Origin: Naegleria gruberi
Lineage: Eukaryota
NCBI GenBank assembly: GCA_000004985.1
Contig: GG738899.1
Direction: 5' to 3' (one strand)
Length of the DNA stretch: 64,000 nucleotides
Shown: positions 1 through 55,200 of the stretch, in pieces
Layout of the letters: each line of letters opens with the position of its first letter
Numbering within the stretch: the stretch's first letter is position 1
Notes under the pieces: generated by a model
What the model was told of the DNA's origin: nothing
The model's database searches: none
Seen by the model: only the letters and a program-made list of their open reading frames with translations
Made by a program: the position numbers and the translations under genes

Positions 1-369
1 CGAACCCAAACCCAAACCCAAACCCAAACCCAAACCCAAACCCAAACCCAAACCCAAACCCAAACCCAAACCCAAACCCAAACCCAAACCCAAACCCAAA
101 CCCAAACCCAAACCCAAACCCAAACCCAAACCCAAACCCAAACCCAAACCCAAACCCAACCCAAACCCAAACCCAAACCCAAACCCAAACCCAAACCCAA
201 ACCCAAACCCAAACCCAAACCCAAACCCAAACCCAAACCCAAACCCAAACCCAAACCCAAACCCAAACCCAAACCCAAACCCAAACCCAAACCCAAACCC
301 AAACCCAAACCCAAACCCAAACCCAAACCCAAACCCAAACCCAAACCCAAACCCAAACCCAAACCCAAA
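1..369. repeat. Terminal telomeric repeat array (CCCAAA)n, about 61 units; C-strand on top means a left chromosome end, G-strand TTTGGG
   Basis: Direct reading: near-perfect hexamer cccaaa from position 1, with one variant cccaac near position 159. The array ends at 369 in a T8 run. Confidence 0.9.
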
Positions 370-590
370 CTTTTTTTTCATCGAGTACCTATTATCTCTA
401 GAACCACTTTGAGTTTTTATTAGCATATAACAGTTTGTCGATGAAATTGTACGCTGATTAACATATATAAGATCCAAGTTTTAAATATTGGCCATTAATA
501 AAATGGTAATGGGTTTTCGCCATACCCAAACCCAAACCCAAACCCAAAACCAAGGAGTTTAGATTGGAATGACTCCAAACCCAAACCCAA
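370..590. repeat. Subtelomeric junction element (~150 bp) ending in an inverted GGGTTTT followed by a short interstitial telomere tract (cccaaa x3-4, interrupted); copy 1
   Basis: ttatctctagaaccactttgag ... aatattggccattaataaaatggtaatgggttttcgccata, then cccaaacccaaacccaaaaccaagg ... ccaaacccaaacccaaacc. A homologous copy lies at 9586-9770. Confidence 0.6.
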
Positions 591-3517: not shown

Positions 3518-3897
3518 AAACCCAAACCCATTCCCAAACCCAAACCCAAACCCAAACCCAAACGCGAACCCAAACCCAAACCCAAACCCAAACCCAAACC
3601 CAAACCCAAACCCAAACCCAAACCCAAACCCAAACCCAAACCCAAACCCAAACCCAAACCCAAACCCAAACCCAAACCCAAACCCAAACCCAAACCCAAA
3701 CCCAAACCCAAACCCAAACCCAAACCCAAACCCAAACCCAAACCCAAACCCAAACCCAAACCCAAACCCAAACCCAAACCCAAACCCAAACCCAAACCCA
3801 AACCCAAACCCAAACCCAAACCCAAACCCAAACCCAAACCCAAACCCAAACCCAAACCCAAACCCAAACCCAAACCCAAACCCAAACCCAAACCCAG
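3518..3897. repeat. Second (CCCAAA)n telomeric block (~63 units with a few variant units), followed at 3898-3950 by degenerate telomere-like units (aaacccaacc, aaaccctagccc)
   Basis: Direct reading. Variant units: cccattccc at ~3530 and aaacgcgaaccc at ~3563. Same orientation as the terminal array. Confidence 0.85.
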
Positions 3898-4924: not shown

Positions 4925-7070
4925 ATGAAAAGAAATCCCAAAGGGTTCTTGTCATCTGATGATGATGACGAACTTGTGGTGCGTTTGTCTGAAGAGCCTG
5001 TAGAAAATGACGATGACATTGAGTTGCCAAGAGATGATGAAAGTGATTCCGATGATGAACTAGACAGTGCCTTCACATCTATAATGTATGGAAATGATGA
5101 TGATGGTGAAAATATCATTGTGGAAAATCATNNNNNNNNNNNNNNNNNNNNNNNNNNNNNNNNNNNNNNNNNNNNNNNNNNNNNNNNNNNNNNNNNNNNN
5201 NNNNNNNNNNNNNNNNNNNNNNNNNNNNNNNNNNNNNNNNNNNNNNNNNNNNNNNNNNNNNNNNNNNNNNNNNNNNNNNNNNNNNNNNNNNNNNNNNNNN
5301 NNNNNNNNNNNNNNNNNNNNNNNNNNNNNNNNNNNNNNNNNNNNNNNNNNNNNNNNNNNNNNNNNNNNNNNNNNNNNNNNNNNNNNNNNNNNNNNNNNNN
5401 NNNNNNNNNNNNNNNNNNNNNNNNNNNNNNNNNNNNNNNNNNNNNNNNNNNNNNNNNNNNNNNNNNNNNNNNNNNNNNNNNNNNNNNNNNNNNNNNNNNN
5501 NNNNNNNNNNNNNNNNNNNNNNNNNNNNNNNNNNNNNNNNNNNNNNNNNNNNNNNNNNNNNNNNNNNNNNNNNNNNNNNNNNNNNNNNNNNNNNNNNNNN
5601 NNNNNNNNNNNNNNNNNNNNNNNNNNNNNNNNNNNNNNNNNNNNNNNNNNNNNNNNNNNNNNNNNNNNNNNNNNNNNNNNNNNNNNNNNNNNNNNNNNNN
5701 NNNNNNNNNNNNNNNNNNNNNNNNNNNNNNNNNNNNNNNNNNNNNNNNNNNNNNNNNNNNNNNNNNNNNNNNNNNNNNNNNNNNNNNNNNNNNNNNNNNN
5801 NNNNNNNNNNNNNNNNNNNNNNNNNNNNNNTCTGAGGATCCCATTGAGAGGAGATTCGATTTCATTCATTAGATTGAGAGACATTTCTTTCGAAATTGTA
5901 ACAGATGATGAATTAGATGATGGTACATTCACCATTAATTGTAATATGATCATCAGAAAGGAAAAACATATTGGGGAAGATAATGATCGTGAATTCAGAT
6001 TGTATGGTAAGAAGGATCAGAAATACTGTCCTGTATTCAATTTAATTAATTACCTATTTAGAAGAACTCCTAATCCATTTGAAGAATATCAGAAAGGAAT
6101 GAGTTTCAAATCTTTCTTATGCAAGCGAAACTTCAACCTGAATTCAAGTTTGAGTGAACAACCCCTTTTTACTCAAAAAGAATCAAGTAATCCAGCCACC
6201 TCCAAAGATCTTTCAAATTGGTTGAAGAATTCTTCCAGAGACAAATTGGGAATTACTTACTCCATGAGATCATTGAGATCCGGTTGTATAATCTTACTAT
6301 ATGCTACATTATGCATTATCAAAGGAACTCCAACTCTTGAAACAGGAGCATCCATTCCAATTAGAGCAATAGTTGGTCATATGAGAGACGAATCTATCAA
6401 ATTTTATATCAGAAAAGCTGTCACTCTCTGCCATAATTTTACTGACCTACAAGATGGTATCTCCGCAAAGAAATTGGATATTAATGATGTTGAACTTAAT
6501 TATTGTTTGACTATTCAGAAGTGTTGCTCTCATTCTGAATACTTAAAATGTCCTGAGTTTATTTCAAATTATATTAAGAACAATAAGGTTGATAGAAGAA
6601 CTTGGATTCCAAGAGGTAGGCCTCATTCTAATCCAAATTTAAAGAACCAACGCCACAGAGCTGCCACTGATATGAAAAAGTACATAATTGCAAATTATCC
6701 AATGCTAAATCTTGGAGATCCAGCTTTAAAAAGGAAAGATGTAGCATGGGAATCATTCTTTGCAGCATGTGGAACATTCATTACTGAAAATGAATTAGAT
6801 ATTGACCCGTATGCCGATTTATCCAAAGCTCAAAAACGAGATAGAAGAAACAAAATGTCTGCTTTGAAAAAGTGCCTTAATATTCTTTATGATGAAAGAG
6901 ATGATGATTTAAAGACCAAAAGTCAATCTAGATTGGATGAAATCATCGTTGGAGCTGAAGCTAATTGGGAGATTCCACAGAGTGCATATAATCCAAAATC
7001 CAAGAAGAGAAAGGTTGTTGCGGAATCTGAATCTGAATCTGAATCTGAATCTGAATCTGAATCTGAATGA
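4925..7070 (+). mobile_element. Crypton-like tyrosine recombinase gene, interrupted by an N-gap at 5132-5830. Acidic N-terminus, a tyrosine-recombinase catalytic domain, a KKRK nuclear-localisation signal, and an (ES)n tail encoded by (gaatct)8
   Basis: After the gap the ORF reads ...SMRSLRSGCIILLYATLCIIKGTPTLETGASIPIRAIVGHMRDESIKFYIRKA. This aligns motif-by-motif to the Cre/integrase box II region (HxxR...GxSIPxI...G[HW]...Y catalytic tyrosine). Upstream is a candidate box I / beta-hairpin Lys (REFRLYGKKDQKYCPVFNL). No reverse transcriptase or RNase H lies nearby, which argues against a DIRS element. Confidence 0.55.
5132..5830. other. Assembly gap (N run)
   Basis: n characters. All ORFs spanning it (5060..5953, 5128..5865 and the central part of 5088..7070) are artefactual in the X region. 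Confidence 0.99.
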
Positions 7071-7074
7071 CTAA

Positions 7075-7683
7075 NNNNNNNNNNNNNNNNNNNNNNNNNN
7101 NNNNNNNNNNNNNNNNNNNNNNNNNNNNNNNNNNNNNNNNNNNNNNNNNNNNNNNNNNNNNNNNNNNNNNNNNNNNNNNNNNNNNNNNNNNNNNNNNNNN
7201 NNNNNNNNNNNNNNNNNNNNNNNNNNNNNNNNNNNNNNNNNNNNNNNNNNNNNNNNNNNNNNNNNNNNNNNNNNNNNNNNNNNNNNNNNNNNNNNNNNNN
7301 NNNNNNNNNNNNNNNNNNNNNNNNNNNNNNNNNNNNNNNNNNNNNNNNNNNNNNNNNNNNNNNNNNNNNNNNNNNNNNNNNNNNNNNNNNNNNNNNNNNN
7401 NNNNNNNNNNNNNNNNNNNNNNNNNNNNNNNNNNNNNNNNNNNNNNNNNNNNNNNNNNNNNNNNNNNNNNNNNNNNNNNNNNNNNNNNNNNNNNNNNNNN
7501 NNNNNNNNNNNNNNNNNNNNNNNNNNNNNNNNNNNNNNNNNNNNNNNNNNNNNNNNNNNNNNNNNNNNNNNNNNNNNNNNNNNNNNNNNNNNNNNNNNNN
7601 NNNNNNNNNNNNNNNNNNNNNNNNNNNNNNNNNNNNNNNNNNNNNNNNNNNNNNNNNNNNNNNNNNNNNNNNNNNNNNNNNNN
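7075..7683. other. Assembly gap (N run)
   Basis: n characters. ORFs 6923..7690, 7067..7774 and 7071..7787 are artefacts. Confidence 0.99.
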
Positions 7684-8820
7684 ATACCAATTTGCATATT
7701 CTGTATCAATTTTACAGTGGTTGGCCAGTTTCCAAGGTCACTTATTAAGAAATGGTCAATTAACTTGCAAGTGACCCTTCCGGACACTTACAGTCACCAA
7801 AAACTATACCAATCAACTCTACTCATCGTCAACTACATTTTGATATATAATTTATTGACTGGTATGATACTTTCATATATGGTCATCTCAGCCCTCTAAC
7901 CTCCCATAGTAACTAAGGTATATACAGATCTCAATTTCCAGTGAGTGAATTTTAATTCTTTCAACTGTACCATGTTCCTGACATCAATTAGTGTATTCTA
8001 TATCAATTACATATGAATTGGTGATGTTTCCATTGACTTGAGTATACCTTGATTTGGTACCTTACCAAATATGGAAATGATGATATCTCTACTTCTACTG
8101 AATAGATTTGAATTGTTTCAACTCCAATACATTGCAAATATCATATAATATATTATGTATCATTTTCACTGTGGTCGGCAAGGTTTCAAGGGTAGGTCAT
8201 TAAGGATGGCCAATTGACTAACAAGTGACACTTCTAGACATTAACAGTCACAAATATCAATATCAATCACCTCCACTCACTGTCAGCAACATTTTGATAT
8301 ATAATTTATTGACTGGTATGATACTTTCATATATGGTAATTTCAGCCCTCAATCCATCCCATAGTACCTTAGGTATATACAGATCTCAACAAGTACTCAT
8401 CGAAATTAAATTCTGTCAACGCCAATCGATTTCTAACATCTAATTATGTATCGTGTATCAATTTCATATGAATTGGTGATGTTTCCATTGACTTTATTAT
8501 ACCTTGATTTGGTACCTTACCAAATATGGAAATGATGATATCTCCATTTCTACTGAGTAGATTTGAAATATTACAACTTCAATATGTTTAAAATATCGTC
8601 AGCAACATTTTGATATATAATTTATTGAGTGAAGTGATACTTTCATATATGGTAATTTCAGCCCTCAATCCATCCCATAGTACCTTAGGTTTATACATAT
8701 CTCAACAACTACTGAATAGATTTGAATTCTTTCAACACCAATCGACTTCTAACCTCAAATTATGTATCGTGTATCAATTTCATATGAATTGGTGATGTTT
8801 CCATTGACTTCAGTATTCCA
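7684..8820. repeat. Tandem satellite with a ~450-bp period (about 2.5 units)
   Basis: Three recurrences of the block: a first unit spanning about 7690-8140 that closes with ...aaatatggaaatgatgatatctc[tc]a[ct]ttctactga[ag]tagatttgaa; a core acattttgatatataatttattgactggtatgatactttcatatatggt[ac]at[ct]tcagccctc found at 7836, 8289 and 8607; and gtatcaatt[at]catatgaattggtgatgtttccattgactt found at ~8005, ~8455 and ~8770. Confidence 0.8.
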
Positions 8821-9585: not shown

Positions 9586-9770
9586 AAAACCTAACTTTTA
9601 TTTTATCAGAGTTGATTATCTCTATAACTACTTTGAGATATGACTGCTTCGTTACAATATAAGCTTTTTATTTATATTTGAATGACATATATGAAATTCA
9701 GATACTCAATATTGGCCGTTCGTTAGTCGTCGATGGGTTTTCGTCTAACCCAAACCCAAACCCAAACCCA
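9586..9770. repeat. Junction element copy 2 plus a short interstitial telomere tract (taacccaaacccaaacccaaacccaatc)
   Basis: ttatctctataactactttgag ... aatattggccgttcgttagtcgtcgatgggttttcgtctaacccaaacccaaaccc matches 370-545, including the inverted gggtttt immediately before the cccaaa units. Confidence 0.6.
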
Positions 9771-27922: not shown

Positions 27923-29010
27923 ACACCAAGGATATTAAACCATCTTTAGAAAATTAACATATCGAGTAATTGTGGGCCAAGAATTAATGGTCAATATGGC
28001 CCAATCATCACCAATTTACACAACCAACAATCAATTCAACAACCAAAGTAAATTTGTGGAAAATGGTCAAAAGCTTATCTTCCATATTTTCATTGGCTGA
28101 TTTTTCGATGTTCCATGAGAGGATACACGAAAGAGTCTGCTCCCTTAGTCAGACACAACACAATGTCAATTTCTTCAGGATTCGAATTGTGAATATTTGA
28201 AGTGGCTGATTGAATAATTGGATAGTCGTTGAGGAAATCTTTTGGAATTGAAGAGAACTGACATTCTCTTTCTATCTGGTGTAAACTCCTATTCTGCCCA
28301 TCGTTAGAGTGTAGGTTTTTGGGAGAGAAAAAATATTGTGGATCAACATCAGGTACATCATGCCTCTGTTGATTCTTGGAGTGATTTCACATCTATTAAC
28401 TCCCAGAATTTCACCACATCATCTCATCATGATTTAAATAATAGTATTAATAGTAATTGTTGGAATTTAATCCTTCATCATGATTTGGAAATAATTTTAT
28501 TATTTGGAAAAATTCGAGTGGGTATTTCATCATCGGAACAACTACCATCATAATTTTTATTTATCATCATTATAATTGTAATATTTAGTGAAATAAATCA
28601 TCATCAGGTATTTGGAAAACTTTCAACACTTCCGAACATTTTCCTATTGATTATGAGTGAATGTTAACATTAGAGATTCATGCATTTGGAGAAGCATATC
28701 CTAATCACTTCAACTTTTCAATAGTAAGGTGAACTATTTTCAGACGATACATATTTGAAATCGTTTTGATTTCTTACAAAATTATCTTTTATTATTAATA
28801 GTATTTAACTTGAAATACTTGGCTAAACTATTTGGATTTTACATTTGTGGCGTTTTGTCTGCTAATTAACATTAGATTGCCCGTTGATTTCGTATCACAA
28901 CTCCACGGATTTTTGTAATCTCTTTCCATTTAACAAGATTCACAGCTCAAATTGAGGATTTATTTCTCGATTTTGGAAATTCACCTCAATGATAGTCTTG
29001 GATATTGCTA

Positions 29011-31347
29011 ATGAATCGACATGTGCTCACACCACAAACGAGGAAACCTACTCGATTCGTTTGGAAAATGAACCGCCTCTGTGCTACTCTTTCAACAAAA
29101 AAAAACATGGAGGTTTCGAATAATGTACCACCCCAACAACAAGTGGAACACAATGCAGATAGTACATTGCATCCTAAACGGTTATCTGGTACTGTGACCT
29201 TCGAGGAACCATCAACCACAGTTCCAATCACTGAGCAAGACTCCAAATCTAATATAACTTCTCAATCCATAATGAACAAATCCTTGTTTAATAGTTTCTT
29301 TCTAATAAGAATCTTGGAGAAAATACCTCTCATCATTAAATTGGCCCTCATTATTGCCTTTTGCTTGATTCCTATGGCAGTATTTGGTGCCTTACTGATC
29401 AATTCTGCTGCTGTCAACTTGAGCCATGCGAATGAGATTAAAAAACTATCAAAAGTAACAGTGCACCTCTCAGAAATTGTTAATTCTTTGCAGAATGAAA
29501 GAGGAACCACAGCTCTTTATCTAGGTTCTCACAAGAGACAGTATATTATTCAATTAGCTAAAGCAAGAAATCAAACTGACATTGCTATAGAAAGATTCTT
29601 GGCACTTTCAGTAAGCCCTAACGATATTTTGATTAATGAAAAGTGGAAGAGGACGTGGTATTTGTTTGAGGATTATTTGGGAAAGGTTACAAATTATTCG
29701 AAAGGTATTGGAGAGTGGAGAATGAAAGTGGAGGATGTTACTAACGAAACCTTTTTACCAACATTCCAAATCGTCAGTGATTGGAATTCCCTGACCAATG
29801 ATTTGATTAGAGTTATAACAAGTCAAAGCTTGGATCCAACTTTTGCAATAATTCACAATTCATTCAACTTGCTTACCTCAACTAAGGAATATCGAGGAAT
29901 TAGAAGATTTTTAGGAACTTTTGGATTTTTAAATGGAAGTTTGTCTCAAAGTTCGATTAATTCATTTAAAGAGGCTGCCATTAGAGTAAGTAATTTATTA
30001 GAAGAATATTTTGTAATAATTGAAAATTTAACTACTTTACAAAAATCTGTTAAATCGTTTTTTAGGGAAGATTGCTTAGACACTTATTTTCACTTCAAGC
30101 ATCCAACGATATTTACGAAGAATTCCATTCAAATGTTCTCAGTAATGATCAGCAAAATGTCTGTCAGAGAATGGAAGACTATGTCTTGGCAAATTATCAA
30201 AATTTAACAAAGTATACAGTTCAAGAATGGTATGATAACATGACTCTATGCATGGATTCATTTAGGAATGTGGAAGATGGAATGAGAGCTTTCTTATTAG
30301 ACTATTCGAATCAAATTGGTTCGAATGCTACCGATTCATTAATTGCATTTACCATAGTTATAGTAATGGTGGTTCTTGTGGCAGCATTAGTGGCATTACT
30401 ATTTTCGAAAACTATTCTAGGACCTTGGAAGAAAATGTTGCGTCTCCAAGAGGACATGGTTTACAAATTCGTGCCACGAGAATTCATGTCCATTATTAAT
30501 AAGGAGAAGGTTACAGATTTGCATCATGGTGATTTCTTTGAGAAGGAGTTGGACATTATGTTTGTCGATATTCGAAACTATACTTCAATGAGTGAGAGAC
30601 TACCAACTGATCAAATGTTCAAATTCTTGAATCGATATTTGGCTTTGGTTGGTCCGATTGTGAGGAGAAATTGCGGATATATTGATAAATATATGGGTAT
30701 GTTCATTCTAGAATGATTATAAACTTTATTAAGGTGATGGATTTATTGCCCTATTTACAGAGCCAGGCCATGCACTGAAAGCATCTATTGAAATTCAAAA
30801 TTGTGTTCTGGTGTTTAATGAGAGCGTGTCACCAATCATTGGTCCTATTTCAATAGGATGTGGAATTGTCAGAGGTCGATGTGCAGTTGGTTTGATAGGT
30901 GAATCAAAGAGAATGGATCCAACTATAGTTGGGGATGCCGTCAATTTATCTGCTCGATTAGAATCTCTGACGAAATATTACAATGCCAAGATTCTAGTTT
31001 CGAAAAGTGTAACCGATTCTTGTTCACCTATTTGGCTGGGAGATGGAGGGACTTGGCGATCCATTGGAAAAATATGTGTAGTGGGTAAGAGAAATTATGT
31101 AGAAATTATGGAAATTATTCCTTTTAATAATTGTAAGAAACGGTCAACTAAGGAAATGTTTGAGAAGGCCATTACACACCTATTTTGCAGAGATAAATTT
31201 GATCCCATTACTGCTGAGCAACTATTAGAACAAGTTTCTATCATTGATCCAGACGATAGGATTTGTAAAATGAGATTATTATTGGCACAGTCGTTGGTTG
31301 TGGATTGTTCACACTGGGATTTTGTTGATACTCCAAATACCAAATAA
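29011..31347 (+). CDS. Receptor-type class III nucleotidyl (adenylyl/guanylyl) cyclase with an extracytoplasmic NIT (nitrate/nitrite-sensing) domain flanked by two transmembrane helices. Three exons: 29011-29985 (or -30012), 30066-30696, 30734-31347
   Basis: TM1 IIKLALIIAFCLIPMAVFGALLI. NIT signature VHLSEIVNSLQNERGTTALYLGSHKR. TM2 LIAFTIVIVMVVLVAALVALLFS. Cyclase motifs: ELDIMFVDIRNYTSMSERLPTDQMFKFLNRYLALVGPIVRRNCGYIDKYMG|DGFIALFTEPGH...GCGIVRGRCAVGLIG...IVGDAVNLSARLES. Intron 2 (30697-30733, gtatgt...ttaag, phase 1) rebuilds the canonical KYMGDGF. Intron 1 runs either 29986-30065 (gtaagt donor) or 30013-30065 (gtaata donor); both are in frame. Confidence 0.7.
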
Positions 31348-31608
31348 TGGATCGAACATTCCAAAGTGTTTGTAATTATCATTTCAAATGAATTTCAACT
31401 ATATGACCTAAACAATATTACAAAAAAATTAGAATCTTTGAACAACATGAGTACGAAACATACTACCAATCCGATTGGAATCATGATTGATGTATGAACG
31501 AGACGTTTGACACCAAGCAATCAAAATAGAAGAGAACTCTCAAAAATGTGAATCACGTTTTGCATTACAATACATTTTTTGCACTGAACTTATTGTATCT
31601 AAAAAAAA

Positions 31609-34467
31609 ATGTGTTTCGTCCAATTCTCTATTATTTGTCTTGTTATAGGATTGTTATTGATAACAAAAACAAATACCTTAGCTAATGAGCAACCAAAGCT
31701 GACCTATGAAATGATCACTCAAATCAAGGGTTGTCCTTGTCAAGAAGAAACTGGTGGAAACCCACACCTCATTTACGATTTTGGTGGAGGTGACATGAAG
31801 AACGTAGCATACTTTTCAGGCCTAGTTTATTTCCTTGATCAATGTAACAACAAGATATACTCATATGAATCCCAAGAAAACCAACAAATCTCAAAAAGTA
31901 ATCAAGTTTATGTGAACTTGGTGGCAGGTGGCGGTGACGATTCGTATTTTAATGGCACACATGCTTGTAGAAGATTTGGATTTGCAGGTGATGGTGGGAT
32001 GGCTATCAAAGCTCTGTTTAATAGACCTGTTCATATTGCGATAGATCATTCAAATGGTGATCTGTATGTCACTGATCAGGGAAATCATGCTATCCGAAAG
32101 ATTACTTGGGATAAGACCATCAGTACTGTTGCAGGCATAGGCAGATTTGGTACAGATTCCTTTATTGATGGAGTTCCTGCTACAAAGGTCAGTTTGGATA
32201 CACCCATCAAGTGTGTGATCGTGGCAGGTGAACTGTACATTCAAGAAAATAGAGGAATTCTTAGAGTTGGTAAAGATGGTACCATTTCTATAGTTATTGA
32301 CATCAAGAAGCACTTTTACTATGCAAAGCAATTCGAATTGTTGACATTCGACATTTCCCAAGATGGATCCATTGTTTACGTTGCCATGAGCTTTGATAAT
32401 TCAGTTTTTATCAAGCAGTATCATGAAAGTAATGAAACTTGGACTCATGTAATGGGTACAGAAAATTCTGAAAGCAGTTGTCTCTCTCTTCCCAATTGGG
32501 AAGAAGGTTATTATTTGAATCCTTCCAATTATACACTCTGCCATGTTACAGATATGATATTTACAAAAGATGGAGCGATGATTCTCATAGACACTTATTC
32601 CAAAAATTATACTGAGATTACTAATTCTGATGTTCCAATGGATATTCAACCAATGTCTGCAATTCATCGTTTAGAACAAGATGGAACGCTTTCTGTATTA
32701 ATGACCTCAACTAGAGGCTATACATTCGGTGGACTGGGGGTTTATCCAAATGGAGATTCAATAATTTATACTGTCCAAGAAGAAAATGTGAAGAAAATTA
32801 TTGAAACTCATATTACTTGTAGAGAATATTTGAAACTGTCCAGTGAAAGAAGGAACTGTGTACCAGTATGTGACACCAGACCAGCTGATGATCCAAAGGT
32901 CTGTGGTGGACATGGCACTTGTCAAGATACTAATAAGTGTGTATGTAATGATGGTTTCAATCCTGAAACATTTTGTAAATCTCCAATGTGTTTTGGAGAT
33001 TTTTCAGAAACTGGAGGATGTTCTGGTCATGGCAAATGCGTTGATTATGATAAATGTTCATGCAATTATGGCTATTGGGGGGACAATTGTCAATATCCAT
33101 GGAGTTTTACAATTATCATTATTGGTTGTATCATTTTGGTTGTAGCTTTAATGTGTGAGTTCAGTACTATCTTTGGTTGTTACATTTACTTGGACAACAA
33201 GAGGAAACATAAAGTGTTGGAGGGTGAACATTCAGACATGCTGGACGACTACAAGAGTGCTCAACAAGATGTTGCCGATATGAGGGGAATAGTTAAAGTG
33301 GTAGAATTTACAAATGCCATTTCCAGTAATCAAAGGTCCACCTTCAATATTAATGGAGAAAGCTATCCATGTTCGTTTGAGGCAAGAAAAAGGTACTTAC
33401 ATATTGAACCCAATGATTTTGGTGTTAAAACTGTGCTATGCAACAATTTAAGGCCATTACTAGTTTACAGCAAAATCTGGCAATTTACAATAGAGAGAAA
33501 TGATCAGATTGCAAGTATTCGTAATGTTGCTTACTTTGTAAATAGTTTAAAATCCAAACCATCCGAGTCCAAATCATCTGAGTATGAAGCTTATCCATAC
33601 CTATTTGTGACATTGAAACACTATCCACTTAGTAACCTTTCCATAAGGACTGAAAAAAGAATTTTACAAAAACTGTTTACAAAAGAAGGAATGAGAAAGG
33701 CATGTCTTAGTATGGCAAAAGCAATAGCTCGATTCCACAATACTTTGGGCTTAATCCATTGCGATATTGCTCTCAAAAATTTCGTAATTGAAGAACTTGG
33801 AAATGGAGAATTAGTTTTCATTTTGATAGATTTTGATGCAGCAAGATTCATCAAGCCAGAAGATGCCACAAAAATGTTACAGAACAATAAGCGAGTATCA
33901 GTGGATAGTTCACAAGGAATCCAACCGCTCTCAGACAATTCCCTAGATGAATATACTATTTCACATTTAACAGGAAACGAGGATTACCAAAATACGACAC
34001 AGAGGGATCTTTATGCCTATGGGGCAACCATTGAAGAACTTTACGATATTTTCCTTTTTCAAATTACAAACATAATTAATGAACTCACTGATATGATTTC
34101 TAATTCCAAGTTTACTGAAGAAAAAGAACGTTTAACAATGGAGATTAAGGCATTTGAAGAAGTAATTCCAAATCACTCTGAAATGTTGAACTATTTCGAA
34201 AGCAATGTGAAGCCAATTGTTGCAAAATTGAAAAATCATGAGTATCAAACAGACTACAAATCAGAAATGTATCTCATTGAACTATTTTCAGATGAAACAT
34301 TTTCTCAAACTCTAAAGAATGAACAACAAGTTTCACCTTTGTCTCACAATACAGCATCAGTCATAACTCCACATCAAAATCCAACACAAACAACAACAAC
34401 TTTAAGCTCAAATCAACCAGAAGAGATTGATGATGAACAAAGTATTCTTTTGCGCAATAGAAGATAA
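31609..34467 (+). CDS. Type-I receptor: signal peptide, NHL beta-propeller repeats, EGF-like modules, TM helix, and a cytoplasmic divergent protein-kinase-like (probable pseudokinase) domain
   Basis: Signal peptide MCFVQFSIICLVIGLLLITKTNTLA. NHL units such as FNRPVHIAIDHSNGDLYVTDQGNHAIRKIT...ISTVAGIG. EGF-like CVPVCDTRPADDPKVCGGHGTCQDTNKCVCNDGF...CSGHGKCVDYDKCSCNYGYWGDNCQ. TM IIIIGCIILVVALMC. Kinase-like core LIHCDIALKNFVIEELGNGELVFILIDFDAARF; no GxGxxG/VAIK recognised. Intronless 952-aa ORF. Confidence 0.6.
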   Translation: MCFVQFSIICLVIGLLLITKTNTLANEQPKLTYEMITQIKGCPCQEETGGNPHLIYDFGGGDMKNVAYFSGLVYFLDQCNNKIYSYESQENQQISKSNQVYVNLVAGGGDDSYFNGTHACRRFGFAGDGGMAIKALFNRPVHIAIDHSNGDLYVTDQGNHAIRKITWDKTISTVAGIGRFGTDSFIDGVPATKVSLDTPIKCVIVAGELYIQENRGILRVGKDGTISIVIDIKKHFYYAKQFELLTFDISQDGSIVYVAMSFDNSVFIKQYHESNETWTHVMGTENSESSCLSLPNWEEGYYLNPSNYTLCHVTDMIFTKDGAMILIDTYSKNYTEITNSDVPMDIQPMSAIHRLEQDGTLSVLMTSTRGYTFGGLGVYPNGDSIIYTVQEENVKKIIETHITCREYLKLSSERRNCVPVCDTRPADDPKVCGGHGTCQDTNKCVCNDGFNPETFCKSPMCFGDFSETGGCSGHGKCVDYDKCSCNYGYWGDNCQYPWSFTIIIIGCIILVVALMCEFSTIFGCYIYLDNKRKHKVLEGEHSDMLDDYKSAQQDVADMRGIVKVVEFTNAISSNQRSTFNINGESYPCSFEARKRYLHIEPNDFGVKTVLCNNLRPLLVYSKIWQFTIERNDQIASIRNVAYFVNSLKSKPSESKSSEYEAYPYLFVTLKHYPLSNLSIRTEKRILQKLFTKEGMRKACLSMAKAIARFHNTLGLIHCDIALKNFVIEELGNGELVFILIDFDAARFIKPEDATKMLQNNKRVSVDSSQGIQPLSDNSLDEYTISHLTGNEDYQNTTQRDLYAYGATIEELYDIFLFQITNIINELTDMISNSKFTEEKERLTMEIKAFEEVIPNHSEMLNYFESNVKPIVAKLKNHEYQTDYKSEMYLIELFSDETFSQTLKNEQQVSPLSHNTASVITPHQNPTQTTTTLSSNQPEEIDDEQSILLRNRR

Positions 34468-34650: not shown

Positions 34651-36451
34651 ATGATGGAGCAAATAAGAAACACATCCTTCCAAAACTTGCCTATTTCTCT
34701 CTCACTACTGCCGAATTTCAAAAAAATCAACACCTTTCGATTCAAAAAACCATTCGAAACCTTTGGTCCCATCATATCTCTAAACTTTAAAAAAACTAAA
34801 CCAGCATGTCTTCACTGCCCACAACTCATAATCAACACCACACAAAATACTACAATAGAAAGTCTTCCACCGAGTCCAACTAATTCGTCCAACTCTAAAC
34901 GAAAGAGTTTCGAATTAAAATTCAATCCACATGATTACGTTCTAGTTTTCGAACACGTCATGAATGATAAAGAATGTAAAGATCTTTTCCATGAATATTT
35001 GACGAAACATGCAAAATCTGCTGAATTGTTGGATTTTCTTAATGATTATCGTGAATATGTGGTTTATTACTTTAGTTTGAATTTGAGGGCGAAACCTTCG
35101 TGTTTGATAAAGGACGTTTGGAAGAAAGTGCCAGAGAGAAAGACTGAACCTGAGAAGGAAAGCGAAGAAGTGTTGGTTATTCGAAAGAATAAGAAATTAG
35201 ACGATTTTCATGCAATGGCAAGGAATTTAATGGAAAAATATATTATCGAGGGTTCACAACATGAAATTAATATTAGTTCTTGTAGGAAAGATATCATACA
35301 GAGATGGAATAACATTAATAACTTTTTGATATCTGACAGTATTAGGACGACAGTTCAAGGATTGACACAAGTTATTGATTTGTTGAATCCTGAAACCTTG
35401 TTCAGAAGTTCAAGTAATTTAGTTCGAGTTGATTTGGAATATGATCAATTTCCTCGTTTTGTTAGAAGTGATTTAGTTTATCAATTCCTAAAAAGGAAAG
35501 GTGAAGGATTTACTCGATCTGTGGCTTTGAATGTTTCACAGGGATACAGATTAGATATTAGATTTAAACCTCACGAGTTGGTTTCCAAGAAAATTGACGA
35601 CAAGATGATTTATTTCGGTAAGTTGTTGAATATTCGAAATGTTTAATGATTTTGTGAAATAATTAATAGGTTACACCCTCCTACAAGATACACCTGACTG
35701 GGAATGTATTCATGACAAGAATGAATCTCAAGTTTTCATCTCCAAAACCAATTACACATTCGGTCTGAATTCGAATAATTTGAAACTAAAGAAACTTACC
35801 TTCTCAATTCCTTACAGTTTAGAGAACTTTTGGGCAATCTACGTAGATACAGAACTATACACGAAATACAAAATATTCCAAACGAAAAACTACAAATTTC
35901 GTCAATATATTGAACCAAATTCAGGTAAAACCGATCAGTCAACTGGAGAATTATTGGATAATCAACTGGCAATGGCTCAAGTTCAATCCTCACTTCGTCT
36001 CGTTCCATTTACCAAATCTAGACAATATTCAGTGATTACTACAGTGATTTATGAACCTCTTCTTGATTGTATCGTTCAAATTTCACCAACTTATAGAGAT
36101 CCAAATGTTGGAAATGAAAATGTGTTGGTTATTGGACTTTCGTACAGTTTTTTCTTTAGAATGAGAGATGGCTCGACTAGAGTAGTTTTGATTACGTATT
36201 CTGATATGAATTTTAATATTCCTTCCTTTGTAGAATCTCGAGCTCTGGTATTTAGTGTCAAAAATTTCAAAAAGGGAATTGTCAAAGCTTTGGATGAATT
36301 GACAGGAAAAGACAAGTCAAAAGTAATTGAATACAAGGATGATCAAGAACGTCCTTGGAATATCATCATGGAGGTCAATAAGAACATGTTCCCAAATCGA
36401 TCTTGGTTTAAGGAATGGAATGAACAAATGGAAGAAAAAGAAGAGCAATAA
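34651..36451 (+). CDS. RGS-domain protein fused to a C-terminal START-like lipid-binding domain. Two exons, intron 35618-35669 (gtaagt...taatag, phase 1)
   Basis: RGS helix signatures FEHVMNDKECKDLFHEYLTKHAKSAELLDFLNDYREY ... FVRSDLVYQFLKRKG. After splicing: ...MIYFG|YTLLQDTPDWECIHDKNESQVFISK... ...RVVLITYSDMNFNIPSFVESRALVFSVKNFKKGIVKALDEL, a START-like beta-grip. Confidence 0.5.
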
Positions 36452-45756: not shown

Positions 45757-48700
45757 TTATTTAAAATATGGATATTTGAGTAATTGTCTAGCTTGTGGTC
45801 TTGTTGCGCTATCTTTACCAACCATTTCAATAACGAGTTCAATAAGCTCAGTTGAGTAAATATTTGGTTTTTGCATATTTTCTGTAAGGATTTGTTTAAC
45901 TTGAGAACTGTCTTTAGAAAAATGGAGATGACTGATGGCAGTTGTAGTGTCATGTGTCATTAATTGATAAATAGTTACACCCAAACTGTAAACATCTGTG
46001 TTAAAACCATAACTTGCTCCCAAACCTAGTTCTGGACTCTGTGAAAATTGTTAACTTTCGAATAGCAATATACTAAACTTACCAAAAACATTGGAGTTCC
46101 ACAATAACTGTTATTTGCAGAAAGTGAATTATCCCTCGCCAATCCGAAATCTGCCAAAACTACCTGAATGTAATCTTGAGTCAATTCCTTAATAAAAATA
46201 TTCGATTCCTTAACATCTCTGTGAATCAGTTTCTTCTCTTCATGAATATATTCTAAAGCATTCAACATTTGGAACAATACACTTTTCAACAAGGTTTCGG
46301 ATATTTGAACTTTAAGTAAACTTGTCAAATCTCCCTTGTCATAATATTCCATCTCAATAACCAATAATTCATTCTTATCAACGAACATGTCATTCACCTT
46401 AATAATATTTGGATGTGCCATGTTCAATAATTGTAAACCTTCTTTCATGAATTGGTTTAGTTCAGAATAGGATTGGAATTTGATAGCTTTTAGAGCTTTG
46501 AAAGAATTGGTTTTGACATCGAAAGCTCTAAAGACAGATCCGAAACCTCCACTTCCAATCTTTACCATGTCCTTGAAACGACTCAATGGATCAAAAGAAG
46601 AAGAACTTGAGCTAGTTCCATTTGTGGAAGACGAAACTGATTGGAATTCCATGGTTGGTCGGAAGAATATGGAAGCTTCAGATTCGGGAAAATCGGTTGC
46701 TGTTATATCATTCTTGGATTCTATCATTTCCAAGTTGAGGTTTTCATTTGATTTCTTTTTTTTCCTAAAATAGAAAATTAGAATGATAATCAAAATTACA
46801 ATAATGACAATTAATAGAAAGACTGAAAGGATGGGAACTAGAGTTGCTATCAGAACTACTTGAGTTTCTTGTTGCTTTGAACTTTCTGGTGAGATTCGTA
46901 ATTGAGAACATTCGTTTCCAGAATAGTTTAAAGTACAGTTACATTGATTAGGAGAAACACATTGTCCTCTTTCTATGCCATTACATGCATCACTTGAATT
47001 CTTACCATAACAAATTGGAAGGCAATTCTCAAAATTTGAAATGAAATATCCAGTTGGACAGTTGACTGAAATTTTGTAAACAGTTCTAGCATTTGCAAAA
47101 AATATTTCACCAGTAGATTCACTAACAACAATCGAATTAGGATTACTATAAAAAACCATAATAATATCAACCTTTCCTTCCTTGTTTAGTTTCTTCAATC
47201 TTCCATTCTCAGCAAAATAAACTATTCCATTAATATTCGAAACATAAAGTGTACTAACAGCCTGTTGAGGGATATAAACAGTCGTTACAATTCCATTGCT
47301 ATCAATTTTCCTTATACCAACCGTATCTACATAATAGATTGAATCGGATAAACTATCGTAGCTTAATGAAACAGCACTTGAAATGATAAAATCAGTTGCT
47401 AGGGATCCGTCTGAGGAACGAGTGCCTCCACCAGCTACTTTTGAAATGGTATTATTTGAGGCCAATCTTATCAAGATATTATCTGAAAAGAATAAATAAC
47501 CACCTTCCTTATATGGTACAATTAATTTTGGACGTGGAATGTCTGTTAATCGATTGTTGACAACAGAACTTCCAGATCCAAACAAATCAAACGTTATCGT
47601 ATCAGTGAATGCTCGTACAATACAACGACACTGGTAGAAATTCTTGAGAAAAGGTTTTCAGGCATAATTGAGTCAACTACCACAACACTGCCTTGGAGTT
47701 TGGCTAATTTTAAAAATGCATGGGGCAATCCGGAGTGCCCTGTCTGTAGGGTATTGTCATTGTATTGTTCTGTGATTTCCATAATCTGCAAAGATATATT
47801 GGTTTGCAACTTTAGTAATTCCTGAAATTCCAGAAAGTTTTGTTTTCCTATTGTCAAACTCTGAGTTGTAATAACCTCCCAAACAAGGACCAATCAGATT
47901 TTTAACTCCCTTGCTTTGTAGATTGTATTGGAGTACTAGATTTTCACTTTGACTATATAAAATTAAATTATTTCCTGACATGGCTAAATTGGCCGAAAGG
48001 TCAACAAATTGTGGATCTTCACCATTGTATTCTCTGTAAACAGCTCCATAACCAGCTATTGTACTTAGTTTAGATGTTGTGTCGTTATACTTTCTTATTA
48101 ATTGATTTCCAGAATCGCAAATAATAAGTGTTCCATTTTGGTCAACTGTAAACGCAGTTGGATATCTTAATTTGTTATCATCAAAACCTGGTACGGTTCC
48201 AATCTGCGTGTTGCCGGCATTAGTAAGGTATCCATCTTCTGAATTGGTGTAAAACGACATTCCCTTATAGCGTCCCATATTTGTTACCTTGTATGGAAAA
48301 GTTGTAAGATATTGGAAAATATTTTCTATTATGATTGCAACAGAATTACCATCTGTAACAAATATACTTGTTTGTGATTGAATAGTTTCTACATAGATTG
48401 AGGTTGGTGCCTTAAAAAGATAATCAATATTCGAAACTATTCCATTCGAAACTATTCTAATTCTTCTATTTCCAGTATCTGAAATATAGAGAATACCATT
48501 ATTGTAGAATAAACCATTTGGATTGTTAAGCTGACAATTTATGGCCAAACCTTCTCCATTATATCCAGCAGTTCCATTTCCAGCTACTCTATAAACAGTA
48601 TCTGAGCTAATATTATAACGAATTACTCTATGATTATTCGAATCTGATATATACAATGATTGATAACTACTATCCATTACCAATGATTGAGGAAAATTCA

Positions 48701-50141
48701 GTAAAGTCTTGGTTCCTGCCATTCCATCAATGTCCGATAAAAACCCCGCTAATCCGGAATCTGCCCCAACCACTATTTTCAAAGTTTTGGTAGAAATGTC
48801 CAATTTCAATACTCGATTTGCATAACTTTCACTCATATAAATATTTCCCTCCAAATCTACAGCAATTCCTCTACATGCTGTCAATAGTTGAGTTTCGGCC
48901 ATGTAGACGAAACCTTGTCCTAAAGATTGAATTCTTTCAGTATTTGGGGAGAAACCAGCAAAGTTGTGCACATAGTTTTGTTCAATCACTCTAATTTTTT
49001 GATTATTTTTTTCTAAAAAGTAAACATTTCCATCAGACGAAACTTCAATACTTGTTGGATTGTAAAGAAAAAATTCAGTATCAAAGTGTTGCATTCCATT
49101 TCCTGCAATTGTTGTGATAGAACCATCTGTTGTTATCTTTCTAATACGATTATTTGCAGAATCTGCAAAGTAAACTTCATTATTCGAAACTCTAATGGCC
49201 TGTGGATAGTTTAGTTTAGTTTCAGTAGCACGTTTTCCATCTACATCAAACCCACATCCATTGTATCCTGCAATTGTTTCCATTTGTCCATTAAAAACTC
49301 TTCTCAATTTGCAATTGAACGTGTCAGCAATATAAATTTCACCTGTAGTATTCGAAACATGGACAGAATGTGGATAATTCAACATGGATAATGTTGCCAC
49401 ACCATCCGAATAACCAGCAGTTCCATTTCCAGCAATTGTCGTAATATTATTCGTAACAAACGAAAGCTTTCGAATAATATGATTTTCTTCTTCAACAAAA
49501 TACAATTCTCCACCATTTCTCTCAACTACAAATAAACCTCTTGGATTTTTCAAATTTGTTACCAATGCATTTCCATCTCCATTCCAAGAATCAACAAAAG
49601 TTCCAGCAACAATTGTTACCTTACTCAACAGATCGGAAGTAAAATTAAAAATTTGCTTTCCAGTCGAAACATAGATCGTATCCAGGGAGCTGCCACTCAT
49701 TCGTATTGAAGTAATTGCACGGTAGTCATTTCCGTTTCTTGTTGAAATGACAGTTTGACTAGTGACATTTATGGCGGTCAATTGGGAATCGTGAAGAACA
49801 TAAAGTGTGTCAATGCCATTGAAGGACATGTCAAGGGGTTGATAGAGTTTCAAGTTTCTGGCATGTTGGGATTGTCCAATAAATTTGGAGAGTTTATATT
49901 CGAGGGGAAGATTTTGGCCTTGTGTAAAAATTGGCAGCAATAATAAAAATGTCAAAGTCACTACACAAAATATCAGATAATTTGGCAAGTGACAGATGGC
50001 GTGTAACATGCTGAATTTTTTTTTGTTGGTTTGGAGTGTGACTCCGCCCTTTCCAGACTGAAATCTTTCAAAGGTTCCAACAAGACACTTCAATCTCTTT
50101 AAGCTTCTAAAAAGAGAAATTAATCGAATTTGTAATTTCAC
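45757..50141 (-). CDS. Large receptor Ser/Thr kinase: signal peptide, ~18 NHL repeats, EGF-like Cys module, TM helix, and a complete protein kinase domain. Multi-exon; the 47586-47760 junction is unresolved
   Basis: Upstream ORF 47757..50141 begins with a signal peptide (MLHAICHLPNYLIFCVVTLTFLLLLPIFTQG). It carries many NHL units (e.g. YIADTFNCKLRRV, YFADSANNRIRKIT, YISDSNNHRVIRY, YISDTGNRRIRIV) and stops mid-repeat (…ADYGNHRTIQ*). ORF 46026..47585 continues with NHL units, CNCTLNYSGNEC, TM LIATLVPILSVFLLIVIIVILIIILIF, and kinase motifs GSGGFGSV, ALKAIK, HRDVKESN, DFGLARD, GTPMFL|SPE across a 44-bp intron at 46039-46082 (gtaagttt...ttcacag), then DVYSLGV. The frame of the downstream part has no ATG for ~150 codons, so it must be spliced to upstream sequence. 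Confidence 0.6.
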
Positions 50142-52274: not shown

Positions 52275-55200
52275 ACCAATATACAATCAATAAATGTTTT
52301 GAAAATGTAAATAATCATATTTAAAGACTAGACTCTATCGTTTACCTGTTGACGAAAAATCTTGGGGTTTTATCAACCCCTAATAAAGAATTTGATGTGT
52401 GCAACAATCATAAAAATAAATATAACCATAAAAGGTATTGAAAAATGACTAACCGAGCTCAAAATCAAATATAACGAGTTTTATTCGAAATACTAATACA
52501 AAAATTGGTAAGTACCTTTCTTCTTACTTCAATAACGAAATGTAAAATTTTGAATTAAATATCTTGAGAGTTGATGATTTGAGAAGGTTGCGGTTCAATT
52601 TCAATTTCCTCAAATAAGCAATTATTGCACCATCTTTCAAATTTAACACATGAATCACAAATAAGAGATCCACAATCATGACATCTACGTACTGACTGAG
52701 TTCTGAAGTGACATGATTCACAGACAAATTGAGGGAAATGAGTGGAACAATTTTTACAAACTCCTTGAAATTCACATAAATTACAAATCTCCACTCCACA
52801 TTGATTACACTCATCAAGTGATTTTGTGTATCCTAAACAAATGTGGCATGGATAAATTGGATAGAAAAGTTCTGTAAAACAATCTATGCAATATAATTGA
52901 TGCCAACATGAATCACAAAACAACCTGAAACAATCACCACACTTATTAATTCCTCTCTCATGTCTACAATAGTTGCAACCTTGTTGTTCACAAATATCTG
53001 GATCACATTTACAAGTATTTGGAAAGCAATATCGTTCATTCTTCTTACAGGAGCATTTAAGGTTTGAGCAACTGGTTGTACAACGGCATCCTGTTACCTT
53101 AGTAAGCTTGGATTCTGAATTTGATTTCTTTCTTTTTTTCTCAATATTTGAGGTTTTAGAGAATTCTTGAATATTCGAAATGGCTGTGTTAACATCATCA
53201 AAAAATTTGTTTAAAATATTAAATAATCCAATTACATCAAAGAATGCACAATGACAATCCGCAACATTTCCCACTTGGAAATGTTCAATTAACATTTCTT
53301 CTTTGAATGCAGTTCTTCCACTACTCTCTTTTTTTGGTAATTTGTGATGTAGATCTTTGTGGCTTTTCATTAATTTCAAGGAATCTACGAAAACTATATT
53401 TTCAAACTTTGATTCTCTTTTCGGATAAAACTCTTTCTTAAATACTTTGAAATCAAGTATCTCACCATTGTGCGCAATTAAGAAAGTTTTCCCTTTAGTA
53501 TTACTAATAAAATCAATAATAAAATCAAGCTCCTTTTCAATGATTGGTTTGTCTCTTACATAATTCAAATTGATTCCAGTAATCTTTGTTGAATGATATG
53601 AAATTGATTTTGTTGGATTTACTAATCCATAAATTGATTCACCTGTTGCCATATTTAAAAAGCAATATTCTGTTATTTTTGGTGGATCATCATTTGTCCA
53701 AAATCCTGTTGTTTCAAAATCAAACAGAATATATTTGTCATCTCCAAAATCATGTTGAAATGGAAGACCCTTATTGTGTGTGTACAAATCATCATTGAAT
53801 AAAATTCTGGAAGCTCGTGGGATTGGTTCTGAAGGTCTAATTTTTTGATCTACTATTGATTTATCAACAGTATTTGTAATAAGTGTTAATAAATTATCAC
53901 TGTCCAATAGGTTGGAAGAATCTGACTGTTTGATTGATTTCAATAAAGCTTCAATCATTGACTGCTTTCCCTCTGAAAATGAATAATTATGAACGTTCAT
54001 TACATGTTTCAAAAATGATTTCAATCTCACAAAAGGTTGATTACATTCTTTACAAAGAATGTAAATATTATTCATGATGTTTTTTGAGTCAATGTTCGGT
54101 GGATTTTTACACATGAATTCTCGTATGAGCATAGTGTTTCTTTGAGGTTCAAATCCTTCTACAGCATCCAATATATAATCGAACATTTCAGTAAAACTAT
54201 TTTCTTTCTCTAATATTTGATCTTCTTCTTCCTCTGTAAGTTTTTTCTTATTCTTCTTCTTATACTTCTTTCTAGTTAATTCCTCATACTCCAATTCCAA
54301 ATCTATTTTTCCATAACAATTCGAATAACTCTCATTTCTCAAAACAAATGGTCCGTCACTTAGTTTTGCTTTTAACACTAACCAAACAGATCTATAACAG
54401 GAACAATAATCCATAAATGTTGGATATCTAATTTTGGATCTAACAATGCTGAAACAATGTTCTACCATTAATGTAGATAAGCTACAAGTACATAGCTCAA
54501 TTGTTGGAAATCTTGTCTTAAGCTCCTTTAAGGATTTTAATGTAATTATAATATGATCAAATAATTCATTATTTAAAGAAATATCGTTTGATTTTTGCCA
54601 TGGATTAATAAATTGAAAAACAGAGTCTAACAGAATCTCTTTTGCTTCCCAACAATAATCATTTTTGAAAATATAATAAATATCCTGCATTAGTTTTAAA
54701 TATTTAGAGACTGTTTGACAAGTAGTATTTTTTGATTTGGCCAAACCATCAATTAAATTAGTTTCTAATAATGCAAATACGGGATCCATAGCCATTTTGT
54801 CAGTAGGATAAATCACAGAATTAGGTAGCCAATCAGTTAAATTTGATTCAGATTTGGCAATCAATAACGTCTCAATTGAAAATGAAATGCCATCTATAGT
54901 CATGGTTTCATTTAGTAATCTATTTCGTAATCGTTTTAGTAGATGAGAGTAATCAAAGAAGTGAACAGTATTGGGAAATATTTTTTGTGTTTGGAAAAAT
55001 GTTAAATTTCCAGTCAATCCATCGCTACTGAAACCTACAACTTGGAAAGAATAATTATTTAACTGAATTCTTTCAAACTGTTCCTTAATCTTTTTTACTT
55101 GATCTTCCAAAAAATCTGCATGACTTGATTTTGTACAACCTGCAAACATTAAAGGGAAAGAAACACTTCCATCAATTGTAGTAGCAAAGAATTGGCAAAT

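Follow-up and report, generated by a model that had tools for sequence, protein, structure and literature searches.

Receptors in which a NIT (nitrate/nitrite-sensing) domain lies between two transmembrane (TM) helices in front of a cyclase have been described across animals, including Placozoa, molluscs, hemichordates and others, where they fall into the atrial natriuretic peptide (ANP)-receptor guanylyl cyclase group (Moroz et al. 2020, PMC7400543). The same paper stressed two conserved arginines of the NIT domain and said that the domain was previously known only from bacteria, a statement that overlooks the heterolobosean proteins described below. In NasR, E175/R176 were named as predicted nitrate-pocket residues (PMC7496416). 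The Naegleria pangenome contains at least 81 cyclases (PMC9928731), and the figure legend to a tree that includes N. gruberi gives NIT among the domains of nucleotidyl-cyclase-III families (PMC6366073). Our literature searches found no functional study of a heterolobosean NIT cyclase and no dedicated study of a Naegleria NIT domain.

Here we analyzed a gene at positions 29011–31347 of a 64,000-nucleotide stretch of Naegleria gruberi DNA (contig GG738899.1, assembly GCA_000004985.1). The whole stretch is called the window, and all coordinates are window positions. A first-pass annotation, made from the letters alone, had read the gene as a NIT sensor joined to a class III nucleotidyl cyclase. 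Our best explanation, to which we assign a probability of about 0.75, is that it is a resident, annotated gene of N. gruberi NEG-M for a single-chain receptor adenylyl cyclase, and that it belongs to a heterolobosean family of NIT receptors in which the fusion is old.

Gene model and introns

After removal of two GT..AG segments, the gene reads as a single 739-codon open reading frame (ORF) on the + strand, from ATG 29011 to the TAA stop at 31345–31347. Amino acids (aa) are numbered from this ATG, so that the annotated 707-aa protein begins at Met33. Translated from this Met (29107), the spliced gene gives a product identical at all 707 positions to EFC39436.1/XP_002672180.1/UniProt D2VUF5_NAEGR, named "membrane bound adenylate/guanylate cyclase". 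Because the match to XP_002672180.1 is exact, a gene with precisely these two introns, both of them proposed in the first-pass annotation, is already in the public annotation. The exons and introns are as follows, with a slash at each splice junction.

29107..29985, + strand: exon 1 (coding sequence from Met33), with the N-terminal cytoplasmic tail, TM1 and ~170 aa at the start of NIT
29986..30065, + strand: intron 1, 80 nt, phase 0, GTAAGT...TTTTAG, between R325 and G326 (AAIR/GRLL)
30066..30696, + strand: exon 2, with the remaining NIT, TM2, the juxtamembrane linker and the first half of the cyclase up to KYMG
30697..30733, + strand: intron 2, 37 nt, phase 1, GTATGT...ATTAAG, after the first base of the Gly536 codon (KYMG/DGF)
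30734..31347, + strand: exon 3, with the second half of the cyclase, a C-terminal helical (TPR-like) tail and the TAA stop

Both are short spliceosomal introns, and the protein is made only if they are spliced out. When intron 1 is kept, the frame shifts. When intron 2 is kept, the product ends with KYMGMFILE-stop, ahead of the second metal-binding Asp. Removal of intron 2 rejoins KYMG/DGF, so the 37-nt intron does restore the GDGF motif as had been claimed, and it also restores the frame of the conserved exon 3. The conserved second half of the catalytic domain lies in exon 3, which can be reached through splicing alone, and this supports intron 2.

Both junctions align without gaps to a paralogue in N. 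gruberi (P0001; numbers of this form are our labels for proteins, and L001 and L004 label loci) and to the N. lovaniensis homologues: AAIR/GRLL is matched by AVIK/GILV and IQAQ/GILL, and KYMG/DGF by KYLGDGF. Both introns are also identical in an environmental allele, L004. Between NEG-M and L004 there are 0 intron differences over 117 nt with ~1 expected, so that intron-versus-exon divergence is uninformative as a test of the introns.

The start codon used in the first-pass annotation, ATG 29011, is probably wrong. In-frame ATGs upstream of 29107 are found at 29011 and 29068. A 4-nt deletion in L004 abolishes ATG 29011, and NEG-M and L004 differ by 3.8% in the 265 nt upstream of 29107, compared with 0.8–0.9% in the exons. 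Because of this deletion, the higher upstream divergence and the public start at 29107, ATG 29011 is unlikely to be used. The paralogue P0001 likewise begins at MEVSN. Translation probably starts at 29107, as in the public model and P0001, or at 29068.

The NIT sensor and the cyclase

The protein is laid out as a ~100-aa cytoplasmic N-terminal tail, TM1, a ~290-aa NIT region on the outer side of the membrane, TM2, a ~50-aa helical linker, the cyclase and a short helical tail. Its principal domains are listed here.

29344..29400, + strand: TM1, aa 112–130, ALIIAFCLIPMAVFGALLI; mean Kyte-Doolittle value of the 19-residue window 2.77
29476..30290, + strand: NIT domain, aa 156–400, split by intron 1; Pfam PF08376, E=3.1e-27
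30348..30404, + strand: TM2, aa 420–438, FTIVIVMVVLVAALVALLF; mean Kyte-Doolittle value 3.24
30549..31026, + strand: class III nucleotidyl cyclase catalytic domain, aa 487–633, spanning intron 2; Pfam PF00211, E=4.1e-11

Exactly two 19-mers of the protein are strongly hydrophobic (aa 112–130 and 420–438), one on each side of NIT, which agrees with the two bracketing helices of the first-pass annotation. Among the Naegleria homologues, no stretch is more conserved than TM1. The NIT assignment itself was confirmed by Pfam, with 96.9 bits against a gathering cut-off of 24.9 and a match to profile positions 2–236 of 239. N-x-S/T sequons number 8 in the ectodomain and 3 in the longer C-terminal cytoplasmic part. 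This distribution would fit an extracellular NIT domain, and it proves nothing in an Asn-rich proteome.

The motif LQNERGTTALYLGS stands at aa 160, and the two pocket motifs of the domain are LQNERG (R164) and KEYRGIRR (R299). A single-sequence phmmer search of the NIT region against the PDB sequences gave no match at E≤1. A profile of three Naegleria NIT domains matched one PDB sequence only, that of NasR (4AKK, E=1e-4). In this alignment R164 and R299 stand against residues 77 and 203 of the 4AKK chain. The second of them lies at the "ER" pair E175/R176 of NasR, so that R299 corresponds to R176. The counterpart of R164, the first pocket arginine of NasR, we take to be R50, by a chain offset of 27. 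Q161, E163, R164, G165, R237, K292, E293, G296 and R299 are all kept, and these columns are 98–100% conserved in 133 bacterial-type NIT domains.

Two pocket positions are different. The invariant His of the bacterial domains is Asn158 here, whereas the other heterolobosean NIT-cyclases retain the His. Arg298 stands here at the position of NasR Glu175, where 95% of the bacterial domains have Glu and most heterolobosean NIT-cyclases have Lys. The predicted pocket is recognisable but would be more positively charged. Because these two positions depart from the bacterial consensus, the ligand may not be nitrate or nitrite. The domain might sense something else, for example another anion, or it might have become a ligand-independent module for dimerisation or scaffolding. 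The Pfam score points the same way (97 bits, compared with 180–200 bits per domain in the NIT domains of bacterial chemoreceptors), as does fast evolution, with homologues in N. fowleri and N. lovaniensis at 40–45% identity. However, both arginines proposed to contact nitrate and five further near-invariant positions are kept. In the literature consulted, nitrate for NasR is the only NIT ligand documented (PMC7496416), and NIT is called a nitrate/nitrite sensor both there and in PMC7400543. A changed or lost ligand is thus a minority possibility, although one with real weight.

The cyclase domain scored 43.3 bits with PF00211 (cut-off 21.9), and its motifs stand where the class III core had been annotated: FVDIRNYT at aa 491, KYMGDGF at aa 533 and GDAVNLSARLES at aa 602. 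It matched 36 PDB sequences at E≤1e-3. The best solved matches were OaPAC (6.6e-19), bPAC (~1e-18), the adenylate cyclase 2w01 (8e-18), which we take to be Synechocystis Cya1, CyaB (3r5g, 3e-17) and the adenylate cyclase 1wc0 (1e-14), presumably Spirulina CyaC. Each of the top 19 solved matches is either an adenylyl cyclase or a cyclase of no named specificity, and rhodopsin-guanylyl cyclases appear only at E~1e-7.

After alignment with OaPAC, D493, K533, D537, T599, N606 and R610 stand opposite D156, K196, D200, T266, N273 and R277. D493 and D537 are the metal-binding Asp pair, N606 and R610 are the transition-state Asn and Arg, and K533/T599 are the substrate pair. The six catalytic positions that a homodimeric class III cyclase has are therefore all occupied. 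A Lys/Thr substrate pair, in which Thr replaces the Asp of class IIIa, is the mark of class IIIb and specifies ATP; the classification is reportedly that of Linder and Schultz. Because the pair Lys533/Thr599 matches the class IIIb adenylyl cyclases, the predicted substrate is ATP rather than GTP, and the predicted product is cyclic AMP (cAMP) rather than cyclic GMP (cGMP). The first-pass annotation had named either product, and of these the substrate residues favour cAMP.

A guanylyl cyclase that makes cGMP, as the animal NIT cyclases would, is the obvious alternative, since the animal TM-NIT-TM-cyclases group with receptor guanylyl cyclases (PMC7400543) and the public name of the protein leaves adenylate or guanylate open. 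We consider it quite unlikely. Lys533/Thr599 is the pair of the adenylyl cyclases OaPAC, bPAC and CyaC and not a guanylyl pair of the Glu/Cys type, and the rhodopsin-guanylyl cyclases rank behind all of the 19 best solved matches.

A HAMP domain is absent. TM2 runs into the ~50-aa linker (..YKFVPREFMSIINKEK..), a homologue of the helix that precedes the catalytic domain in bacterial 7TMR-DISM cyclases and in bPAC. The three-helix C-terminal tail is also conserved in those bacterial enzymes. The cytoplasmic module with its tail is 35–38% identical to bacterial cyclases (P0004, P0180–P0186) over 80–93% of the module. Outside the Heterolobosea, the nearest cyclase relatives found were bacterial or metagenomic 7TMR-DISM-, REC- and HK-linked cyclases, again at 35–38% identity; they came from word-indexed searches, in which other and perhaps closer Naegleria cyclases may have been missed.

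Residence in the genome and history of the family

The gene lies among N. gruberi genes. Four single-exon ORFs close to it encode proteins identical to N. gruberi NEG-M entries from a single 331-kb scaffold (zf-GRF EFC39435, EFC39504, ArfGAP EFC39444 and enoyl-CoA hydratase EFC39505), and the domains of the neighbours are eukaryotic: zf-GRF, ArfGAP, RGS, ABCG, NHL/EGF, TLDc and metallophosphatase. The fraction of G+C (GC) is 0.34–0.35 in the gene and in its flanks alike. In addition, an environmental metagenome contig (L004; ENA ERZ929261, run ERR1078381, project PRJEB11402) is 99.05% identical to window 28842–32224, ~3.4 kb, and on it are the cyclase gene, with its two introns unaltered, and the beginning of the downstream gene.

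Bacterial contamination was considered as an alternative, together with an assembly artefact. Both domains are bacterial in type, and outside the Heterolobosea each module has its closest relatives among bacterial or metagenomic sequences. On the other side stand the linkage to exact N. gruberi genes on one scaffold, the host-like GC, two frame-breaking GT..AG introns, the independent contig L004 with the same gene, introns and downstream gene, and homologues on chromosome-scale contigs in three other heteroloboseans. Contamination is excluded on these grounds, and we give this alternative a probability close to zero. In this the first-pass annotation, which had called the gene a resident eukaryotic one, was correct.

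To find relatives of the sensor, an exhaustive HMMER search with NIT was run over 1.84 billion cluster representatives, and 2801 proteins were found at E≤1e-3. A word-indexed homologue search with the NIT region alone returned near-identical sequences only. After N. gruberi itself, the best HMMER matches were N. fowleri FDP41_005831 (P0031), N. lovaniensis C9374_009006, Willaertia magna ABK040_006932 (P0035), P0073, P0042 and P0046. These align end to end with the window protein at 29–45% identity; for the Naegleria and Willaertia homologues the identity is 38–45% over 643–708 aligned residues. P0073 is eukaryotic, because its contig also carries formin, RasGEF, MBOAT and kinesin genes. P0042 lies on a contig of 33% GC and P0046 on a 2.7-kb ENA contig.

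The first-pass annotation had called the joining of a NIT sensor to a cyclase typical of bacteria. This is not what the relatives show. A Pfam scan of the 133 nearest NIT representatives found MCPsignal in 89, a histidine kinase in 5, a cyclase in 5 and RGS in 4, and animals have NIT-TM-cyclases too. Among the five with a cyclase, 2 are from named heteroloboseans, 1 is P0073 with its eukaryotic neighbours, and 2 (P0042 and P0046) have no assigned origin; none of the bacterial-type proteins among the 133 carries a cyclase domain. A pattern scan of bacterial and archaeal genomes confirmed no relative; its patterns came from the TM1 region, so it is silent on bacterial NIT-cyclases.

In a neighbour-joining NIT tree, built without support values from the 150 best representatives only, 14 eukaryote-assigned representatives (cyclase- and RGS-linked) and two close relatives of one of them form a single clade against 131 bacterial-type sequences; P0042, P0046 and P0113 were placed in the eukaryotic set by similarity alone. 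Three of the 4 RGS-linked representatives were identified, and all three are Willaertia NIT-PAS-RGS proteins. These proteins of W. magna (P0044, P0075 and P0153; KAL9641597, KAL9643125 and KAL9656553) consist of an N-terminal tail, NIT, PAS and RGS in 722–761 aa, and their NIT domains lie in the same eukaryotic clade. We have met no description of such a pairing, apparently of a bacterial sensor with a eukaryotic G-protein regulator.

The introns of the family are short and variable in position. The N. lovaniensis homologue P0002 (locus L001) has three, of 66 nt (SLQ/RERG), 57 nt (KEIT/GIKR) and ~46 nt (IISD/SVNL), none of them at the N. gruberi positions. Because these are similarly short, introns of 37–80 nt are normal for the heterolobosean NIT-cyclase family. 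Introns have come or gone independently since the lineages parted, which argues for long residence in eukaryotic genomes. As a side observation, the N. lovaniensis homologue is a tandem pair (L001 10001–14754, PYSW02000004.1). In the second copy, P0003 (558 aa), TM1, the end of NIT, TM2 and the cyclase are retained, whereas most of NIT has been lost together with both pocket motifs.

These comparisons suggest that the fused receptor is a heterolobosean family older than the split of Naegleria and Willaertia, with both modules bacterial in type, and that the NIT sensor was later recombined with a eukaryote-specific output, RGS. It is plausible that one module or both came from bacteria in an ancient transfer, and unlikely that the whole gene was transferred recently. 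The horizontal acquisition put forward in the first-pass annotation is no more than possible and, if it took place, is old, since the family is common to three Naegleria species, Willaertia and uncultured eukaryotes.

The recent form would have the whole fused NIT-cyclase pass from a bacterium into N. gruberi. It draws on the 35–38% identity of the cytoplasmic module, linker and tail included, to bacterial 7TMR-DISM- and REC-linked cyclases, and on the failure of the word-indexed searches, which could have missed some, to bring up another N. gruberi cyclase. However, homologues of the same architecture in N. fowleri, N. lovaniensis, Willaertia and uncultured eukaryotes form one clade, the composition is host-like, introns were gained independently across the lineages, and there are 0 cyclases in the bacterial-type proteins among the 133 representatives scanned. 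We regard a recent transfer as very improbable.

The coding sequences of NEG-M and L004 differ at 18 positions, 9 synonymous and 9 non-synonymous. By a rough estimate this ratio would correspond to a ~threefold deficit of replacements per site. The L004 sample evidently holds a very close relative of N. gruberi NEG-M, and three ENA fragments (P0182, P0188 and P0189), 66–86% identical to exon-sized pieces of the cyclase, suggest further Naegleria-like organisms in metagenomes.

The paralogue P0001 (441 aa, "predicted protein", on a 260-kb scaffold) is 78–80% identical to the NIT half of the window protein. Past NIT it follows the +1-shifted frame of the window gene and then stops, without TM2 and cyclase. 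It is either a decaying duplicate or the product of a frameshift in sequencing or annotation.

That the window gene is itself unexpressed or a decaying pseudogene might be argued from this frame-shifted paralogue, from the subtelomeric location described below and from the allele differences, half of which are non-synonymous. The ORF is intact in two independent alleles, however, and the catalytic and pocket residues are kept. The deficit of replacements, as far as the rough estimate goes, and a 5' flank that diverges four times faster than the exons also speak against this reading, which we hold to be highly unlikely.

The surroundings of the gene gave several further observations. Arrays of (CCCAAA)n with ~61 and ~63 copies (telomere repeats of the TTTGGG type) occupy window 3–370 and 3518–3896, around an N gap at 827–3517. 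Additional N gaps lie at 5132–5830 and 7075–7683, and short (CCCAAA)n patches at 525–548 and 9749–9766. The scaffold apparently ends in a telomere, which makes the cyclase gene subtelomeric, ~29 kb in. The arrays have the same orientation and flank a gap, so they may also be a scaffolding artefact or an interstitial repeat. In the same AT-rich subtelomeric stretch, window 7696–8584 is a tandem duplication of a 455-bp unit (2 copies, 82% match).

A tblastn search of the window found no second cyclase or NIT gene. An RGS-domain ORF of 331 aa (34651–35646, + strand, E=1.8e-9) follows the cyclase two genes downstream; this proximity may be coincidental. Teneurin-type NHL repeats occur in two large single-exon ORFs, at 31609–34467 (+ strand) and 47757–50141 (- strand). 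The first of these (952 aa) adjoins the cyclase; besides the repeats it contains EGF-like modules, a TM segment and, in its C-terminal part, an HCD...DFD motif. From this kinase-looking part it is possibly a receptor-kinase-like protein, and Pfam made no kinase call. A 1223-aa ORF at 52555–56226 (- strand) has a TNP-like RNase H N-terminal domain (E=1.5e-5) and may be a domesticated or active transposase-related gene.

Proposed mechanism and comparison with known systems

If the resident receptor adenylyl cyclase works as its sequence suggests, the active form would be a homodimer with two active sites at the interface of the catalytic domains, as in the bacterial class III enzymes that the protein resembles. 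A small anion would bind between two helical bundles of the extracellular NIT domain, involving R164 and R299, and by analogy with NasR nitrate or nitrite would be the default candidate. Binding would move TM2 and the linker helix, alter the register or packing of the catalytic dimer and so change the rate at which ATP is converted to cAMP. The scheme would be analogous to that of BLUF, 7TMR-DISM or CHASE sensors that drive homologous class III cyclases.

Several points weigh against the receptor adenylyl cyclase as we have set it out. Splicing and expression rest on the comparative argument and on the public gene prediction. An AlphaFold2 model, computed from a four-sequence full-length alignment, had a mean confidence (predicted local distance difference test, pLDDT) of 44.9 and a predicted template modelling score of 0.27. 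A NIT domain folds into two bundles of four helices each; the model is all-helical over the NIT region at pLDDT below 50, which makes it unusable for comparison of folds, and the three-helix tail is the only part with pLDDT 69–85. Because the model could not be used, fold and dimer geometry were taken from sequence homology, and the homology of the sensor to NasR is likewise one of sequence. The two altered pocket positions, the limits of the neighbour-joining tree and those of the word-indexed cyclase searches belong to the same side.

A wider idea is that the NIT receptors on the cell surface of heterolobosean amoebae form a separate clade, which arose a single time from a bacterial sensor and was then rewired in eukaryotes, with an altered pocket. 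We offer it tentatively, as doubtful rather than probable. The outputs may then be a class IIIb adenylyl cyclase in Naegleria and Willaertia and also PAS-RGS in Willaertia. If it is true, and binding of nitrate, nitrite or another soil anion sets cAMP or G-protein signalling, these would be, outside animals, the first surface receptors for inorganic nitrogen oxyanions in eukaryotes, and they could tie environmental chemistry to the behaviour or differentiation of Naegleria.

The gene is not new. The exact protein and the gene model are public and the TM-NIT-TM-cyclase architecture has been described in animals, so that little is added as a discovery. It is a clean example of a bacterial-style one-component sensor in a eukaryotic genome, domesticated with introns, and part of a very large repertoire of Naegleria cyclases. 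It is also a candidate route by which a soil amoeba reads inorganic nitrogen chemistry into cAMP, and it indicates that NIT-cyclase receptors arose outside animals too. The value that remains is experimental and concerns ligand, substrate and physiological role.

Compared with the public record XP_002672180.1/EFC39436.1, the protein is identical; the first-pass reading differs from it in the start codon only, and the public name is silent on the NIT sensor. The heterolobosean NIT-cyclases of N. lovaniensis (C9374_011351/011352; P0002 and P0003), N. fowleri (P0031) and W. magna (P0035) have the same order of N-terminal tail, TM, NIT, TM, linker, cyclase and tail. They have no intron positions in common with the window gene, and they keep the NIT His where Asn158 stands here.

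NasR of Klebsiella oxytoca (4AKK), a NIT-ANTAR antiterminator that responds to nitrate/nitrite, is the sole solved match to the sensor, and its pocket arginines correspond to R164 and R299. In contrast, NasR is soluble and cytoplasmic with an RNA-binding output, whereas the NIT domain here is extracytoplasmic between two TM helices and the output is a cyclase. NasR E175 is Arg298 here. The bacterial NIT-HAMP-MCP chemoreceptors (for example P0034, P0036 and P0045), nearest to the sensor among the bacterial NIT proteins sampled, have the same TM-NIT-TM cassette, with 24–28% identity over NIT. Unlike the protein here, they have HAMP, a methyl-accepting output and, in many cases, two or three NIT copies, and they lack a cyclase.

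The bacterial class IIIb cyclases OaPAC, bPAC, Cya1, CyaB and CyaC, with P0004–P0008 and P0180–P0186, share the catalytic hexad with Lys/Thr, the linker helix (RFVPREF...) and the helical tail at 35–38% identity. Their sensors are others (BLUF, 7TMR-DISM and REC), and they are intronless. Finally, the animal NIT-guanylyl cyclases, like the protein here, have NIT between two TM helices, a C-terminal PF00211 cyclase and both pocket arginines. No animal sequence was identified among the best NIT or cyclase matches looked up, a minority of which carried organism names. The animal cyclases belong to the ANP-receptor guanylyl lineage, whereas the cyclase here is of the class IIIb adenylyl type and nearest to bacterial enzymes. 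The protein is thus no member of the animal family. Because the cyclase domains come from different lineages, the likeness between the animal and the heterolobosean receptors is most likely a convergent wiring of domains.

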